Virus record (IMG/VR): IMGVR_UViG_3300036978_000814
Span: 1 to 63,934 of that record
Direction: 5' to 3' (one strand)
DNA length: 63,934 nucleotides
From: a virus
Lineage: Duplodnaviria > Caudoviricetes
Numbering within the stretch: position 1 is the stretch's first letter; each line of letters starts with the position of its first letter. This document shows positions 11,737 to 29,709 of this stretch, in pieces. The notes below the pieces were generated by a model. The model searched no databases. It saw only the letters and a list, made by a program, of their open reading frames with translations, and had not been told where the DNA came from. Made by a program: the position numbers and the translations under genes.

Positions 11737-13149
11737 ATGCCCGCCTCAATCAACATCCAGCCCCAGCCCTTCGTGCCGGGCAACCACCAGAAACTGCTGA
11801 TCGTCCTTCAATACTACAACGGCGATAAGGAGGCCGTCGAAGATTTGGCCACGCTAATCGCGGACCTAGAGCGAATCCGCAACAATCAGGCCGACATTCT
11901 GGTGTTCCGCCGTCACGACGCCGCGGAGTTCGACTCCTCGGTGCTTACGCGGTTGCGCGACAAATTCAGCGTTGTTCACTACGAGCGTAGCCGCCGTCAG
12001 GATGCAAGCGGCTACCCGTTTGGCCCCAACCAAATGTGGAGCGATCTGGTCACGATGCTCGGTCAAAAGTCTTCGTGGTACAACAACTACTACGCGTTTT
12101 TGCCGTTGGAGTCCGATTGCGTGCCCGTGCGCCCCGGATGGATTGGTGCGTTGATTGAAGACTTTAAGGTCGCCAAGGCTAAGGGTTACTCCGCCATCGG
12201 GCACGTCCATCGAGACCCGGTGGAGCATATGAACGGAGTGGCGGTTTACGACACCCGGATTTGGTCGATCGTCGGCGGCAACATCCTAAACGGGTGCAAC
12301 CCTCAAGTGGCGTACGATATCGCCTTCCGGGAAAGCCTTCTCCCGTTGGCGTACGATACTCCCCACATTATGATGGAGTATCAGCGCCCGACCATTCGCG
12401 CTGAAGATTTGTTTCGCCCGTGGAAAAAGAATTACGAGCCCGTGTTGTTTCACGGGGTGAAGGACGATTCGGCCCGGACCGCGGTCCGCTCAAAATACGT
12501 CACGTTCTCGGACGAGAAGGACGCGTCGCTGCGGACCGTTTTCACCTACGAGCATCAAAGGCCCAACAACCCAATGTTGGCGCTTCAGTATAACCTTTGG
12601 TCGGAGAGCTGGAGGAGCCGGGGTTGGAACCCGGTGAAGCTGGTCTTGCGGGATGCGGTTAGCCACCCCCGGTACAAAGACGTGATGGCCGCCCTAAACG
12701 CGATGCAGTTTGAGGGGGACAAGGTCCGCGCCATCGCACGAGTGGTCCGTTGGCTGGCCCTTGATTCGGTCGGTGGCGGTTTGATGGTCGACCCGGATAC
12801 GGTCCCTAACATCTTCAACCCGACCCACTTAAAAGCTAAAACCGCGATCCTGCACTCGGAAACCGATTTTGGCATTTTTGCCGCGTACTTGGACAAACAG
12901 GCTCTTGAGACGCTTTTGACCGCGGTGGAGACATACCCGGCCGATCCGACCGCTCAAGTTCGGGCCCCCGAGTACTTGTTCTTCCGCATCGCCGGCTTGC
13001 TTAAAAAGCCAACCCTTCTGGCCCAGTTCTGTGGTTCCAAAAACTGGAGGGATGCCCGGATTGTCAGCTTCAATCAATCGGAGATGGAGCGCGCGGATGT
13101 ACGGGGGAGTACAGTTCAGGCTATAGAGCAGTTTTTGCGCGGGTTCTGA
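11737..13149 (+). CDS. two-domain glycosyltransferase-like protein
   Basis: Domain 1 GYPFGPNQMW, FLPLESDCVP, HMNGVAVY, FHGVKD; domain 2 WSESWRSRGWNP and RWLAL..GGGLMVDPD (GT32/DxD-like). Confidence 0.65.
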   Translation: MPASINIQPQPFVPGNHQKLLIVLQYYNGDKEAVEDLATLIADLERIRNNQADILVFRRHDAAEFDSSVLTRLRDKFSVVHYERSRRQDASGYPFGPNQMWSDLVTMLGQKSSWYNNYYAFLPLESDCVPVRPGWIGALIEDFKVAKAKGYSAIGHVHRDPVEHMNGVAVYDTRIWSIVGGNILNGCNPQVAYDIAFRESLLPLAYDTPHIMMEYQRPTIRAEDLFRPWKKNYEPVLFHGVKDDSARTAVRSKYVTFSDEKDASLRTVFTYEHQRPNNPMLALQYNLWSESWRSRGWNPVKLVLRDAVSHPRYKDVMAALNAMQFEGDKVRAIARVVRWLALDSVGGGLMVDPDTVPNIFNPTHLKAKTAILHSETDFGIFAAYLDKQALETLLTAVETYPADPTAQVRAPEYLFFRIAGLLKKPTLLAQFCGSKNWRDARIVSFNQSEMERADVRGSTVQAIEQFLRGF

Positions 13150-13162
13150 AAATGAAAAATAG

Positions 13163-13190
13163 TTGACGGGTGGGGATACCCCGTTATCCC
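13163..13190 (+). promoter_or_regulatory. candidate sigma70-like promoter for the capsid operon
   Basis: A-rich UP-like tract, TTGACG at 13163, imperfect -10 TATCCC at 13185. Confidence 0.4.
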
Positions 13191-13201
13191 CTTCCCTCAT
13201 C

Positions 13202-13336
13202 CGGGGGTTATTAGCGCGCAAGCGCCGGTCCGCTGCGAGAGCAGCACATCCGCCGGGGACAAACGGGTGTGTCGCAAGACCGAATAGGAGAGGGAACTAC
13301 CCACCTTCGACCGGGTAAACCCCGTTCAACGACGGG
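13202..13336 (+). ncRNA. candidate structured cis-regulatory RNA in the major capsid gene leader
   Basis: Nested helices with three GNRA-capped hairpins (GCGC-GCAA-GCGC, GCUGC-GAGA-GCAGC, GUC-GCAA-GAC); hand-folded only. Confidence 0.65.
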
Positions 13337-13365
13337 ACAGTTCAACTTAACCTCCTCTTACTACA

Positions 13366-14598
13366 ATGCCTTGCACTCCGATTCCGATCGATCTCGCGAC
13401 CCAGCTCTTTAGCCGGGACCCGCAGCGTCTTTATGGCCCCATCGCCAAGAGCCTGCTGACGCAGGTTCCCTACATTTCCGCCCTGAAGTCGGGCACGTTC
13501 CCCGCGTCTGTCGCTGCCACTCTTATCAGCGTCGCGCAGGGCCGTCCTTACCTCCAGACCTCGCTGGCCAATCCCTCGTTCACGTCGATGCTGAACCTCT
13601 GCGGTTCCTGCTCGCTGAACGTCGACGACAACGGTACGAATCAGTACACGTACTCCGCGTCGATCAATCAGGGTATGTCCGACAAGATCTGCTTGAATCA
13701 GGGTTTCTCGGCCTTCCTTGGCTCCCTGACCGCGCAGCTTGAGGCGTATCAGACCGGCATCACCGAGCTGATCAATGCTGACATCCGTTATCAGCTTTTC
13801 CTGCGTTCTGGCGTCAAGATGGCGGTCCGTACCGGCCTCAGCGTCACGAGCCAGATCACCGGTGGTGAGTACAACATCGATCAGGCGGTTCCGACCGTCG
13901 AGTCGAATGCTGAACTGACCTTCTCCACGCTTCAGGCGGTCAACCGTTATATGCGGTCGGCCCTGCGTGCGAAGCCCTTCGGTTCCGGCGCCAACGCTCA
14001 CGCCAAGTTCATCGGTTCGCCCGACATCCTCGACGCGCTCCGTGATGACCTCGGCGGTGCGGCCGGCCCCGGTGGTGCGAACATCGTGCCCCTCGGTCAG
14101 GTTGCCGCCAGCGGCAACAAGATGGCGGTCGACGCCCTCACCGGCTATATGTTCGAGCCGCTGTACCGCGGTATCCAGATGGGTGAGGACCCGATTCCGC
14201 TCCGGCTCAACTGGAACGGCTCGGCCTACGTCCCGGTCGATCCCAACAGCGCCTACACCGCCACCAGCGGCACCTCCATTGCGACGGTGTCCAGCGCGTG
14301 GTTGAACGCCTCCCACGAGGTGGCGTTCCTGATGTACGAAGGCTCCTTCGAGCGTCAGGTTCCGGCTCCCTTCACCGGCGAGGGCAAGATCCGCTTCCAG
14401 CGGCAGCTCTTCGGTGGCGAGATCCAGTTTATGAACCACCCCGATATGGAGTCCAATATGTTCGGGGACTACGGCGTGATGGCCTACCGTATCGGTCGCG
14501 CCTTCCGCCCGATCTATCCGTGGTTCGTTCTGCCGATCATCTACAAGCGGTGCAAGAACACCAATGACCTGACGACCTGCACGGGCGTCAGCGGCTGA
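13366..14598 (+). CDS. major capsid protein
   Basis: 410 aa, strongly biased codon use, own leader and downstream terminator-like hairpin, position after portal/scaffold. Confidence 0.75.
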   Translation: MPCTPIPIDLATQLFSRDPQRLYGPIAKSLLTQVPYISALKSGTFPASVAATLISVAQGRPYLQTSLANPSFTSMLNLCGSCSLNVDDNGTNQYTYSASINQGMSDKICLNQGFSAFLGSLTAQLEAYQTGITELINADIRYQLFLRSGVKMAVRTGLSVTSQITGGEYNIDQAVPTVESNAELTFSTLQAVNRYMRSALRAKPFGSGANAHAKFIGSPDILDALRDDLGGAAGPGGANIVPLGQVAASGNKMAVDALTGYMFEPLYRGIQMGEDPIPLRLNWNGSAYVPVDPNSAYTATSGTSIATVSSAWLNASHEVAFLMYEGSFERQVPAPFTGEGKIRFQRQLFGGEIQFMNHPDMESNMFGDYGVMAYRIGRAFRPIYPWFVLPIIYKRCKNTNDLTTCTGVSG

Positions 14599-14616
14599 TC
14601 GATAGCTTAGGAACCG

Positions 14617-14653
14617 GCCGCCTCAGGGAAACCCCCTGAGGCGGCTAACCTTT
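14617..14653 (+). terminator. hairpin after the capsid gene (likely partial terminator)
   Basis: 12-bp perfect stem GCCGCCTCAGGG/CCCTGAGGCGGC with only a short T tract. Confidence 0.65.
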
Positions 14654-14672
14654 AACCCGGGAAGCCAGAATT

Positions 14673-15770
14673 ATGTCCTGCGAAGGTACGACTCAATGTA
14701 TGCCTCCGAAGGCCACACTCCTGTTTTTTCAGGGTATGTCCGGCCCCAGCGGTCCGCTGGGCCCGACGGGCGCTACCGGACCTCAGGGCAGTCCGGGCGG
14801 CGCTACTGGCGCCACGGGTCTGCGGGGTATCACGGGCGCAACCGGCGTTGCAGGTCTAGTTGGCTCCACCGGCGTTCAGGGTCAGTCTGGTCCGCTCTGC
14901 ACTTTCCGCGGGGCGTACAACCTTACGACGCGTTATTACTACAACGCCGGCCGACGGGACGTGGTCTCGTATTCCGGCGCGTTTTGGGTAGCCAACAACC
15001 CGGCGAAGGACGCTCAGGTCAACTGGGGAACCCCCGGAGTCAGTAGCGACTGGGTCACTTTTGGTTCTCAGTTCTCGATGATCGCGACGGGGCTTCTCCT
15101 GACCGAGAACGCGATCATCACTACCAACCTCACTCTGGGCACCACCGGCCTGAACGTGGGGGTGATTCAGTCCGCGAACTACGTCGCGGGCTCATCTGGC
15201 TTCCTGATTCGCGCCGACGGTTACGCGGAGTTCAACGACGTGCTGGTGCGAGGCAAAATCTCCACCACCTCGGAGAAGTTCAACCCGGCCAATACGGCGA
15301 ACACGATGCCGCCGATCGGGTTTGGGGTACGCGTCATCCCGCAAATCCTCAACGCGACAATCCCAGAAAACCCCACGCTCCTTTACGAGACCGACAACAG
15401 CCTCATCTTCTACGGCTGGAACAGCGGCTCGGCCGGGTTTGTCACGAACCGTTTTGGCAACTCAAGCCAGACGTTCGTCATCAACCTTCAAGGCAACGCG
15501 AACAATAGTTCTCCTACCGCGCAGTTGTTCTACATCGAACTGGTGTATCGAACCCGAAACAACGGTGGTCCGTGGGGTGCTTGGAACGACATCGGTTTGC
15601 CGGCGTACGTCACTTCCGCGGTTGTCGGCCAGAGTTTTCAGAAAACGAACTTTGAGCTTCTGTCGTTGACCGGTACTCAGGACGTGCAATTTGGTGCGGC
15701 GTTCTCCAAAGGTGTTGGAGGCTCCGTCATAATGGAAGGCGCTCAACTGTCCGTTCAGGCCCCGAATTAA
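14673..15770 (+). CDS. virion fibre/decoration protein with short collagen-like segment
   Basis: GXY repeats near the N-terminus; [30 protein letters not shown] resembles tail-fibre DUF3672-type segments. Confidence 0.7.
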
Positions 15771-15771
15771 A

Positions 15772-18700
15772 ATGTCCAACGACTGCTGCAAGCCCATCAC
15801 TTGGTGTACCCCGCCCGACTGGAACACCCAGTTCCCGCAGTTGGTCGGTGCGACGGGGGCTAGCGGCGTCACGGGCGCGACGGGGCCGGCGGGAACGCCC
15901 GGTTCTCCGGGCGGGGCAACTGGCGCCACCGGCGCTACCGGGCCCGCTGGTACGGGCACGACTGGTGCAACTGGTGTTTCGGGTCCTGCGGGCGTAACTG
16001 GTGCTACGGGTCCTGCGGGCACGGGCACTACGGGTGCTACGGGCCCCGCGGGCATCGGCACAACTGGCGCTACCGGCGTTGCGGGTTCGCCCGGCGCGAC
16101 CGGCTCACTTGGCGCTACCGGCGCTACCGGCGCGGGCGTTACCGGTGCCACCGGCGTTCAAGGCCCTGCCGGCGTTACCGGTGCTACTGGCCCCGCTGGC
16201 GCGGGCACGACCGGCGTTACGGGCGTAACCGGCGCAACTGGCGTCGCCGGTGCGACTGGCGTCACGGGCGCAACTGGTGCAGGCGTTACCGGCGCTACTG
16301 GCGTTGCGGGCGCAGTTGGCGTTACCGGCGCTACCGGTCCTGCGGGCACCGGTACGACCGGCGCGACCGGTGCTACTGGCACGGCTGGTGCCGCAGGTGT
16401 GACCGGCGTTACAGGTGCTACCGGACCTGCGGGCACAGGCACTACCGGTGCCACAGGTGCTACTGGCACCATTGGTGCAACCGGCGCTACCGGACCTGCG
16501 GGCACGGGCACTACCGGTGCTACCGGTGCTACCGGCACGGCCGGAGCTGCTGGCGTTACGGGCGTTACCGGTGCTACTGGCCCTGCCGGCACGGGCACGA
16601 CCGGCGCTACTGGTGTTGCAGGTGCTGCCGGCGCAACTGGTGCTACCGGTGTAGCCGGCTCTGTAGGTGTTACCGGAGCAACTGGTGTTGTTGGCGTTAC
16701 CGGTGCAACCGGCGTCGTCGGTGTAACCGGCGTCGCTGGTGCGACTGGCGTCACGGGCGCTACTGGTGTTGTCGGTGTCACGGGTGCAACCGGCGTTGTC
16801 GGCGTCACCGGTGCGACCGGCGCGGTCGGTGTGACCGGCGTCACGGGTGTCACGGGTGTTGTAGGCGTCACCGGTGCGACCGGCGTTGTCGGCGTCACCG
16901 GCGCGACTGGCGTTACCGGTGTCACCGGTGCCACGGGTGTGGGCACGACCGGTGCCACGGGCATTCAGGGCCTAACCGGCCCGATTGGTGTAAGCGGCGC
17001 TACCGGTCCTCAGGGTGCAACTGGTATTCAAGGCCCTCCGGGCGCTGGCGGTCAGTTGGCCAACTACGGCGTATTTGAGAGCCTGTCGAGCCAAACCGCT
17101 GCGGCGATCAATACTGGTTACGCGATGACCTTGGACCCCACTCCGGTGGAGGCTCTTGGCATTTCGATCACGTCTGGCAGTCGGGTTACCTTTAGCCAGA
17201 ACGGCACTTACGATCTTCAGTTCTCGGCTCAACTTCACAACAACGGCGGCGGCGGCTCTGGCCAAACGGTAAAGATTTGGTTCGCGAAGAACGGAACTCC
17301 GGTTCCCGACAGCTCCACGATCGTTGTCGTACCCAGCAACGCCCCGTACGTTGTCGCCGCGTGGGACTATATGTTCACCGTAGTCGCCAACGACTACGTT
17401 CAGATTTTCTGGTCTACCAATAACACGGCCATCGGTTTGGATTACAGCCCGACGGTCAACGGGTTCCCTGCGGTTCCGTCCTTAATCGTAACGGTGATGC
17501 AGGTGACCTACGCGCAAGCGGGCGTCACGGGTGTTACCGGCGTGTCCGGTGTTACTGGCGCGACTGGCGTCGCTGGTGCGACTGGCGTCACGGGCGCTAC
17601 AGGTGTTGTCGGTGTCACGGGTGTCACGGGTGCTACAGGTGTCGTAGGCGTTACTGGTGCGGTCGGCGTCACGGGCGCGACTGGTGTCGTAGGCGTTACT
17701 GGCGCGACCGGCGTCAACGGCGTTGTCGGCGTGACCGGTGCTACCGGTGTTGTTGGCGTCACGGGCGCTACTGGCGTTGTCGGTGTCACCGGTGCGACCG
17801 GTGTCAGCGGTGTAATCGGCGTGTCTGGCGCGGCCGGTGTCACGGGCGCTACTGGTGTGGTCGGTGTGACCGGTGCAACGGGCGTCAACGGCGTTGCCGG
17901 CGTGACCGGTGCTACCGGCATTCAAGGCCCGATCGGCGTAACGGGTGCTACCGGGGTTGGTGTCACCGGGGTTACCGGTGCTACTGGCATTCAAGGCCCG
18001 ATCGGCGTAACCGGTGCTACCGGTGTTGCTGGTGCTGCGGGCGTTACCGGTGCTACCGGTGTTGCTGGTGCTGCGGGCGTAACCGGTGCTACCGGTGTTG
18101 CTGGTGCTGCGGGCGTAACCGGTGCTACCGGTGTTGCTGGTGCTGCGGGCGTTACCGGTGCTACCGGTGTTGCTGGTGCTGCGGGCGTAACCGGTGCTAC
18201 CGGTGTTGCTGGTGCTGCGGGCGTGACCGGTGTTACCGGTGTTACCGGGGTCGGCGTTACCGGTGCTACTGGCATTCAAGGCCCGGTTGGTGTTACCGGT
18301 GCTACCGGCGTCAACGGCGCCGTCGGTGTTACCGGTGCTACTGGCGTCCAAGGCCCTGTCGGTGTTACCGGTGCTACCGGCGTCAACGGCGTTGTCGGTG
18401 TTACCGGTGCTACCGGCGTGGGCACGACGGGTGCTACCGGCCCCATCGGCGCTACCGGCCCTGCGGGTGGTGGCGGTTCCGCCAGTTGGACGACCAAGAC
18501 CTCGGCCTACACCGCGGTTACTGGCGATCGTCTTCTGGCCGACACCTCTGCCGGTGCGTTCACGATCACGCTTCCCGCGACCCCGGCGAATGGGAACTAC
18601 ATCGAGTTTAACGACCCGAAGAAGACTTGGCCGACCAATAATCTGACCATCGCCCGCAACGGGTCGAACATCGACAGCCTCGCGGAGGATCTGGTCTGCA

Positions 18701-19200
18701 ACATCTCCGCTGGCGTAGGGCTGACCTACATCAACGCCACGATCGGTTGGGAGGTTGATTTCATCAACGAGATCGGCGGCACCGCGATCACGGGCGCCAC
18801 CGGCGCCACGGGTCCGGCGGGGATTGGCGTCACCGGGCCTACTGGTGTTACTGGCCCGACGGGTGTTGGGATCACCGGCCCCACCGGCCCCACCGGTCCG
18901 TCAAACATCAACCAGAACGCCAAGACCGCCAGCTACACTCTGGTCGCCTCGGATACCGGTAAGCACATCTACACCAATTCCGAGGTCATCGTGCCTGCGA
19001 GCGTGTTTGCCGTTGGTGACGTGGTCACGATTGCTAACAGCAGCGGCTCCACCATCACGATCACTCAGGGCGCGTCGGTGACGATGTATTTTGCGGGTAT
19101 CGGCACCACGGGTAACCGTTCGCTCGCTACTCGCGGATGCGCCACGGTGCTTTATGTGGCGAGCAACACGTTCCTGATTATGGGCGCTGGCCTCGGCTGA
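15772..19200 (+). CDS. long collagen-like (Gly-X-Thr) fibre protein, 1142 aa
   Basis: Two long GAT/GVT triplet tracts separated by a beta-sandwich domain, plus C-terminal fibre domains ([15 protein letters not shown]; [10 protein letters not shown]). Confidence 0.85.
18004..18222 (+). repeat. about six tandem 36-bp units encoding [12 protein letters not shown]
   Basis: ggcgt(a/t)accggtgctaccggtgttgctggtgctgcg repeated nearly perfectly. Confidence 0.85.

Positions 19201-26949: not shown

Positions 26950-29709
<2,760 letters not shown>

Follow-up and report, generated by a model that had tools for sequence, protein, structure and literature searches.

The window, i.e., the whole stretch of DNA that was analyzed here, is a complete virus record of 63,934 bp. 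Structural genes occupy its + strand between approximately 6.8 and 45.1 kb, and the replication module lies on the - strand. A gap of 216 nt, bordered by a 470-aa ORF (11737-13149) on one side and a 410-aa ORF on the other, holds the leader RNA described in this study, which stands at the head of a same-strand gene run from 13366 to 45136. Large genes with collagen-like triple-helix repeats at 14673-19200 and 27196-29709 resemble phage tail fibres. The features of the locus are listed in Table 1.

No family match was found for the 410-aa product in Pfam or PHROG, and none of its 165 homologues at E <= 0.001 carries an informative name. An AlphaFold model of the product, which was built on 23 homologues and had a pLDDT of 61.5, was compared with the PDB using Foldseek. 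Phage capsid proteins were the best matches, none of them at E <= 0.001 (cyanophage Pan3, E 2.5e-3, probability 0.98; N4, probability 0.99). Judged from this fold comparison the 410-aa product is probably the major capsid protein, and it is referred to below as the capsid protein.

The capsid protein had no match among 50,697 cultured-phage records or in the GTDB species genomes, and the polymerase was at most 33.4% identical to those of cultured phages. Capsid homologues were found on 93 IMG/VR contigs, 80 of which were taken for comparison, and at 39 JGI metagenome loci. In relatives with a capsid protein 84-88% identical to that of the window the block 13200-13310 is near-invariant and both of its flanks have drifted, and in more distant relatives (capsid protein approximately 50-77% identical) the plan of the leader is shared and the stem sequences are different. 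The main comparative set consisted of 26 distinct leaders of related uncultured phages with capsid proteins 50-100% identical. The 26 cores were aligned, a covariance model with five hairpins was built from them, and all 26 were realigned to this model. A separate alignment of 13 close relatives was used for pairings in the clade of the window.

The five-hairpin RNA is single-copy in the window and occurs once per record in five of five related phage records. A scan of IMG/VR using a pattern of two motifs returned 23 matches, of which 17 are located 56-92 nt upstream of a capsid homologue on the same strand and one is at a locus that ends before the gene. The other five (three distinct sequences) have neither a capsid homologue nor a full match to the model; considered as further copies of the RNA, they look like chance. 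When 17 loci of the distant clade were searched using the five-hairpin covariance model, no match was obtained at E <= 1.

Table 1. Positions of the features at the capsid gene leader. Pairing values for P1, P2, P3, and P5 and fractions of pairs with two-sided changes refer to the 26 distinct leaders.
Feature	Position	Strand	Description
Promoter-like element	13163-13190	+	TTGAC box 13163-13167; TA-led hexamer 13185-13190
5' segment before P1	13201-13213	+	Nearly invariant in 13 close relatives
P1	13214-13225	+	4 bp, GNRA loop; 94.0% of cells paired; two-sided changes in 3/4 pairs
Junction strand J	13226-13231	+	Candidate partners are the P3 loop (pseudoknot K1) and 13309-13
P2	13232-13245	+	5 bp, GNRA loop; 84.8% of cells paired; two-sided changes in 4/5 pairs
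P3	13247-13269	+	6 bp, 11-nt loop 13253-63; 88.5% of cells paired; two-sided changes in 2/6 pairs
P4	13271-13280	+	3 bp, GNRA loop, clade-specific insert; 100% paired in 13 close relatives, one double change; two-sided changes in 1/3 pairs
P5	13290-13308	+	13290-94/13304-08; inner 3 pairs 93.4%, outer 2 pairs 75.0% paired; two-sided changes in 4/5 pairs
P6	13321-13336	+	In minimum-energy fold of 11/13 close relatives; stems differ
Translation start region	13337-13365	+	Predicted open; G-poor, C/A/U-rich, without Shine-Dalgarno motif
410-aa protein gene	13366-14598	+	Probably major capsid protein (fold comparison of AlphaFold model)
Downstream hairpin	14616-14646	+	13 bp, G+C-rich, just past the capsid stop codon; terminator-like or 3'-protecting element

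Fold and covariation of the leader RNA

The sequence and coordinates of the leader are as described in the original prediction, and the fold that had been drawn there by hand is the minimum-energy fold calculated by ViennaRNA for 13202-13324 (+), including the three GNRA loops at 13218-21, 13237-40, and 13274-77. The energy of this segment was -50.2 kcal/mol compared to -42.4 +/- 3.9 for dinucleotide-shuffled sequences (z -1.98), and four of 200 shuffles folded as well, so that the thermodynamic signal alone is modest and the strong evidence is comparative. For the minus strand of the same segment z was -0.38 with 75 of 200 shuffles as good, which together with G-U pairs that work only on the + strand bears out the claim of a strand-specific RNA. 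For the whole 216-nt gap z was -2.11, with six of 200 shuffles as good.

Hairpins P1-P5 are kept with compensatory changes among the 26 distinct leaders. In the alignment of these leaders, which was fitted to the covariance model and thus leans toward structure, 87.9% of the cells in P1-P5 were paired compared to 75.4 +/- 1.0 after shuffling of the partners (none of 500 shuffles as good), and two-sided changes occurred in 14 of 23 pairs compared to 7.1 +/- 1.5 (again none of 500). As a control the partners were offset by one to three columns, after which 33-43% of the cells were paired and 3-8 pairs had two-sided changes. Each of the five hairpins contains at least one pair with two-sided changes (Table 1). 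The leader hairpins are real and functional-looking, conserved RNA.

An explanation at the level of DNA, by promoter-proximal or regulator sites or else by chance, would draw on the conservation of 13201-13213 just past the predicted transcription start, where the approximately 15 nt before P1 have no supported pairing partner. As an account of the whole leader it is scarcely credible in view of the two-sided changes, the strand dependence of the G-U pairs, and a conserved block that reaches more than 110 nt past the promoter.

The main variation in the 5' segment is a G/A difference at 13205. The P1 loop is of the GNRA type in 20 of the 26 leaders, P2 is by eye missing in two distant relatives (L023 and L015), and the letters of P4 are unaligned in eight of the 26. 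P3 varies mainly by C/U opposite G and its 3' arm is near-invariant; in one leader (L018) both arms are changed, as judged by eye. The P5 hairpin was correctly anticipated by the original prediction but not its register (13281-13309), since the compensatory changes fit 13290-94/13304-08 better. The sequence of its 9-nt loop (13295-13303) is almost invariant. On an unrelated phage contig (L134:226-257, L139:7863-7894) the two short motifs of the pattern scan pair with each other in a single simple hairpin that directly precedes a clear Shine-Dalgarno site and an ATG. This is probably chance; the hairpin shows that the 3' arm of P3 and the loop of P5 are mutually complementary.

The outer closing helix that had been proposed for 13202-12/13314-24 did not hold up among the 13 close relatives, where only 61.5% and 75.3% of the cells were paired and two of its pairs were unpaired in 6/13 and 8/13 sequences. 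The hairpin at 13321-36, which had been taken for its competitor, is instead a conserved sixth hairpin (P6), for which an alignment without refinement already shows two-sided changes in four of five pairs. A neighbouring pairing takes the place of P6 in the minimum-energy folds of the window and its near-twin. No U-run follows P6.

Other pairings of the 5' segment were tried and rejected. A helix 13202-08/13303-09 proposed by RNAalifold was 97.8% paired in the close clade, but it contains A-C mismatches in two of 13 sequences, excludes the covarying P5, and is by eye impossible in the distant clade. A pseudoknot of 13205-08 with 13299-13302 in the P5 loop gave -142.1 in a swap test compared to -142.3 +/- 4.5, with 10,131 of 20,000 permutations as low; its bases hardly vary. 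A small ORF within the leader was also discarded, as no frame is kept open and all three forward frames hit stops in L008 and L026.

The junction strand J has two possible partners. One of them, which was not part of the originally predicted fold, is the loop of P3, where 13257-60 would pair with 13228-31 to form the pseudoknot K1. In a swap test the real combinations of junction and loop summed to -168.0 kcal/mol compared to -138.5 +/- 9.3 kcal/mol for permuted combinations, and 12 of 20,000 permutations were as low. A helix of 4-7 bp is possible in all 18 distinct junction/loop combinations, and the sequence of this helix varies by clade. The support is uneven among these combinations, as the own loop is among the best three of 18 for six types and eighth or worse for eight of the 18. 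At K1 both the MAFFT alignment and the alignment to the model place the distant clade off by one column. The loop strand of K1 is followed by the A-rich run that ends the P3 loop. A-rich runs in this position are seen in many H-type pseudoknots. Taken together, there is moderate support from the sequence comparison for formation of K1.

The other candidate partner of J is 13309-13. The helix 13226-30/13309-13, which belonged to the original fold, is retained in the close clade with wobble changes only, and it is largely lacking in the more distant clades, where six types rank 17-23 of 23 and 149 of 20,000 permutations in the swap test were as low.

Additional structures were noticed in related leaders. 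In the clade with 50% capsid identity (L020-L027, L110, L111) the sequence between P5 and the ATG resembles, by eye, a further small H-type pseudoknot, with two interleaved helices of 4-5 bp whose sequences differ among the members. Phages with a capsid protein 32-35% identical to that of the window (L028-L087) carry a different leader approximately 120-170 nt before the ATG of the capsid homologue, also behind a TTGAC box, which looks like two tandem H-type pseudoknots and is not detected by the five-hairpin model. In an unrefined alignment of 24 of these leaders 72.4% of the cells were paired compared to 66.5 +/- 1.1, and the covariation score was reached by one of 500 shuffles.

The original prediction had not recognized the family of the RNA, and the Rfam search agrees with this. 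Rfam 15 gave no match at the gathering score in the whole window, none even at E <= 10 in 13000-13500, and none at the gathering score at 20 related loci. The leader RNA is thus uncatalogued in the sense that it matches no Rfam family.

Predicted promoter, transcript, and downstream hairpin

The promoter-like motif at 13163-13190 is the only one of its kind in the + strand intergenic DNA of the window, and in 23 of the 26 distinct leaders a TTGAC is located 32-34 nt upstream of the first position of the RNA model. In more distant relatives TTGACA is followed after approximately 18 nt by TGnTAnnnT (identified by eye), which corresponds to a near-consensus extended -10 promoter. A generic promoter scan made no call at 13163-13190. 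The -10-like hexamer in the clade of the window ends in C and not in the usual final T, and is weaker than that of the distant clade; this difference between the clades may reflect different hosts or the need for an activator. The transcription start is predicted near 13196-13199. Since the TTGAC box is at a fixed distance, the RNA would begin essentially at this predicted start.

Contigs from metatranscriptomes of two studies (13214-13440 and 13209-13427) span the leader and the coding region, although contigs from RNA libraries prove neither transcription nor the ends of an RNA. In four RNA runs the contigs leave 12700-13208 and 14662-14900 uncovered, and their ends at 13209/13214 and 14659/14661 are not evidence for the start or end of a transcript.

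The original prediction had named a processed phage ncRNA as one possible identity of the element. Structured 5' fragments often outlast their mRNAs, and a stable RNA cut from the leader and acting in trans on assembly, packaging, or a host target would be in keeping with a compact, highly conserved, structured core that has its own promoter. The contigs that cover both leader and coding region make this less likely. With no terminator between core and gene, and with the RNA always located immediately in front of the capsid gene, we consider a trans-acting RNA to be very improbable indeed.

On the other side of the capsid gene a strong hairpin comparable to that at 14616-14646 is present in all 15 representatives examined, and in seven of these it is followed by a U-run (L015, L019, L020, L023, L024, L026, and L027). 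No promoter-like motif was found behind the hairpin of the window. As predicted from these sequence elements, the capsid gene appears to have a promoter to itself on one side and a terminator-like element on the other.

The same arrangement is reminiscent of the put RNA of phage HK022, a cis-acting RNA just after the promoter that heads a long operon. A put-like RNA would render the transcribing polymerase resistant to terminators and so let it read into the approximately 30 kb of structural genes downstream. The position of the RNA right at the promoter and at a fixed distance from it, the long gene run that it heads, and the terminator-like hairpin directly behind the capsid gene with no promoter-like motif after it would all suit such a function. 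However, put consists of two simple stem-loops, to which the present fold bears no evident likeness, and a terminator kept after the capsid gene in 15/15 relatives argues for termination and better fits a mostly monocistronic capsid message. We therefore regard antitermination of this type as very unlikely.

The translation start region

The last 30 nt before the AUG contain a mean of 2.8 G compared to 9.2 per 30 nt in the remainder of the leader, and the value is lower in all 29 leaders analyzed. In 25 of the 29 these 30 nt are also predicted to be more unpaired than the core. No GGAG-type motif was found upstream of the capsid AUG, and Shine-Dalgarno motifs are not enriched genome-wide (five of 36 genes compared to a background of 12.7%). 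The host probably initiates translation without Shine-Dalgarno sites, as far as can be predicted from the genome. A short C/A-rich motif was noticed by eye after P6 in several clades (13338-13350 in the window and the same place in L015, L019, and L100), and it may be part of a Shine-Dalgarno-independent start signal.

An alternative fold in which 13285-93 pairs with 13351-60 had been put forward as masking the start region. This pairing is present in the minimum-energy fold of the window itself, and 71.4% and 80.8% of its cells are paired in the close relatives, but it shows no covariation beyond shuffles and the percentage for the whole set was reached by 58 of 500 shuffles. A pairing of 71-81% without covariation would be expected of a purine-rich arm that faces a pyrimidine-rich tract. 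A cruder test on 26 leaders gave a mean z of -0.07 with one of the 26 notable; this test is weak as the 5' arm of the close clade was cut short. Since in addition a ribosome-binding motif that could be masked is lacking and the final 30 nt are predicted to be open in most leaders, masking of the start is not upheld.

These observations also bear on the proposal that the leader is a riboswitch or translational operator responsive to a ligand or protein. In such a switch 13226-31 would toggle between the P3 loop and 13309-13, and capsid synthesis would be set by a metabolite or by a phage late, capsid, or scaffold protein that holds J in one of the two pairings. A junction of several helices in which unpaired bases are invariant and a pseudoknot can form would be appropriate for this, as would a covarying, aptamer-like fold in a 5' leader, one of the features expected of a riboswitch. 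Moreover, both of the mutually exclusive partners of J are kept in the clade of the window, with 100% (K1) and 98.5% (13309-13) of the cells paired. The switch idea is kept alive by the invariant unpaired bases and by these two exclusive partners in the close clade. However, the second partner is missing in distant clades, no riboswitch family in Rfam matches, there is no Shine-Dalgarno motif to hide in a start region that is mostly open, and no U-run terminator occurs in 13150-13365. A classical riboswitch is disfavoured because no expression platform was found, and overall we consider a switch to be doubtful.

A more specific form of the proposal is that the core serves as a sensor by which the timing of capsid synthesis is set, through toggling of J between the P3 loop and the strand after P5. 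One of the two states would be locked by a ligand or protein of phage or host origin, and this would alter the access of ribosomes or of decay enzymes to a capsid message free of Shine-Dalgarno sites. This reading seems quite unlikely to us.

Proposed role of the leader RNA and comparison with known systems

In the reading that we prefer, with belief and doubt evenly balanced, 13196-13365 is the 5' UTR of an mRNA devoted to the capsid gene, acts in cis, and has a role in the stability of this mRNA and/or in docking. A host-type promoter (TTGAC at 13163) would start the transcript a few bases ahead of the conserved RNA, whose first approximately 115 nt would fold into hairpins P1-P5, with the junction strand also able to pair with the P3 loop. 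P6 would come next, followed by approximately 30 G-poor, unstructured nucleotides up to the AUG, and the strong hairpin right behind the capsid gene would close the unit. The structured domain would act in cis and post-transcriptionally to bring about a large or well-timed output of capsid protein, possibly by protecting the 5' region of the message against decay, by offering a docking site to a protein or the ribosome, or by both. The start region would stay accessible, so that initiation could proceed independently of a Shine-Dalgarno site.

That unpaired bases are invariant points to a specific partner and not to bulk structure alone, and the invariant loops would be equally appropriate for a sensor, an operator, or a stabiliser. 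In 5' stabilisers of the ompA type a stem-loop stands almost at the very start of the transcript. P1 begins approximately 15-18 nt after the predicted start, and simple stabiliser hairpins of this type are not usually preceded by an unpartnered 5' segment.

No phage product is made in larger amounts than capsid protein, yet nearly everything known of its expression was learned in a small number of model phages. The phages compared here form a large uncultured clade from freshwater and soil, in which an elaborate RNA fold is retained at the start of what is predicted to be a self-contained capsid message, apparently without use of Shine-Dalgarno sites. Should the effect of the fold be to stabilise this message or to recruit the translation machinery, it would represent a compact, natural module for expression in hosts of this kind. 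A sensing function would make it a new class of regulatory RNA, and the sensor reading, if true, would imply a new switch class or a ribosome-docking RNA in phages of hosts without Shine-Dalgarno sites. Independent of its mode of action, the leader RNA is a further well-supported family among the cis-regulatory RNAs of phages that are backed by covariation, of which there are still few.

No description of the leader RNA was found in searches of the full-text literature. A survey of IMG/VR from 2023 predicted 8,495 unnamed structured RNAs ('DNAVirus_X'). Some of these are candidates for cis-regulation that precede phage genes, and in five cases the gene belongs to a major capsid protein family (PMC10690425). 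As described there, the candidates have an average length of 67 nt and were scored only within 25 nt of the start codon. They share the data source and type of object with the leader RNA and differ from it in these respects, although some of them may overlap part of it.

Among leader RNAs of known function, preQ1-II and SAM-II riboswitches resemble the combination of K1 and P3 in their strand order (5'-S1, S2, S1', A-rich linker, S2') and in their location in a 5' leader. In contrast to them the present RNA has no match in Rfam at E <= 10, contains a spacer of 4 nt and a whole hairpin inside the knot, and encloses no ribosome-binding site.

The gene 32 protein of phage T4 binds single-stranded nucleic acids and represses its own mRNA. 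The pseudoknot in the gene 32 leader, which is mentioned in PMC10690425, is a translational operator. What the two phage leaders share is a pseudoknot, in the present case a candidate, close to the 5' end and an unstructured start region downstream of it. However, the product of the present gene resembles a capsid protein, a type of protein that is not known to have an RNA-binding role.

The gene 10 unit of phage T7 consists of the phi10 promoter, the gene 10 leader, the capsid gene, and the T-phi terminator. Compared to it, the promoter of the present unit is of the host type whereas that of T7 is a promoter for the phage polymerase, there is no Shine-Dalgarno site in place of the strong Shine-Dalgarno site and enhancer of the T7 type, and the leader is far more elaborate, since it has invariant loops and a candidate pseudoknot in addition to its five to six hairpins. 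Alike are the dedicated promoter directly before the major capsid gene, the structured and probably co-transcribed leader, and the hairpin terminator right after the gene; in the present locus the own promoter upstream and the terminator downstream of the capsid gene are both predicted from sequence. In its design the T7 gene 10 unit would appear to be the closest analogue of the capsid unit described here.
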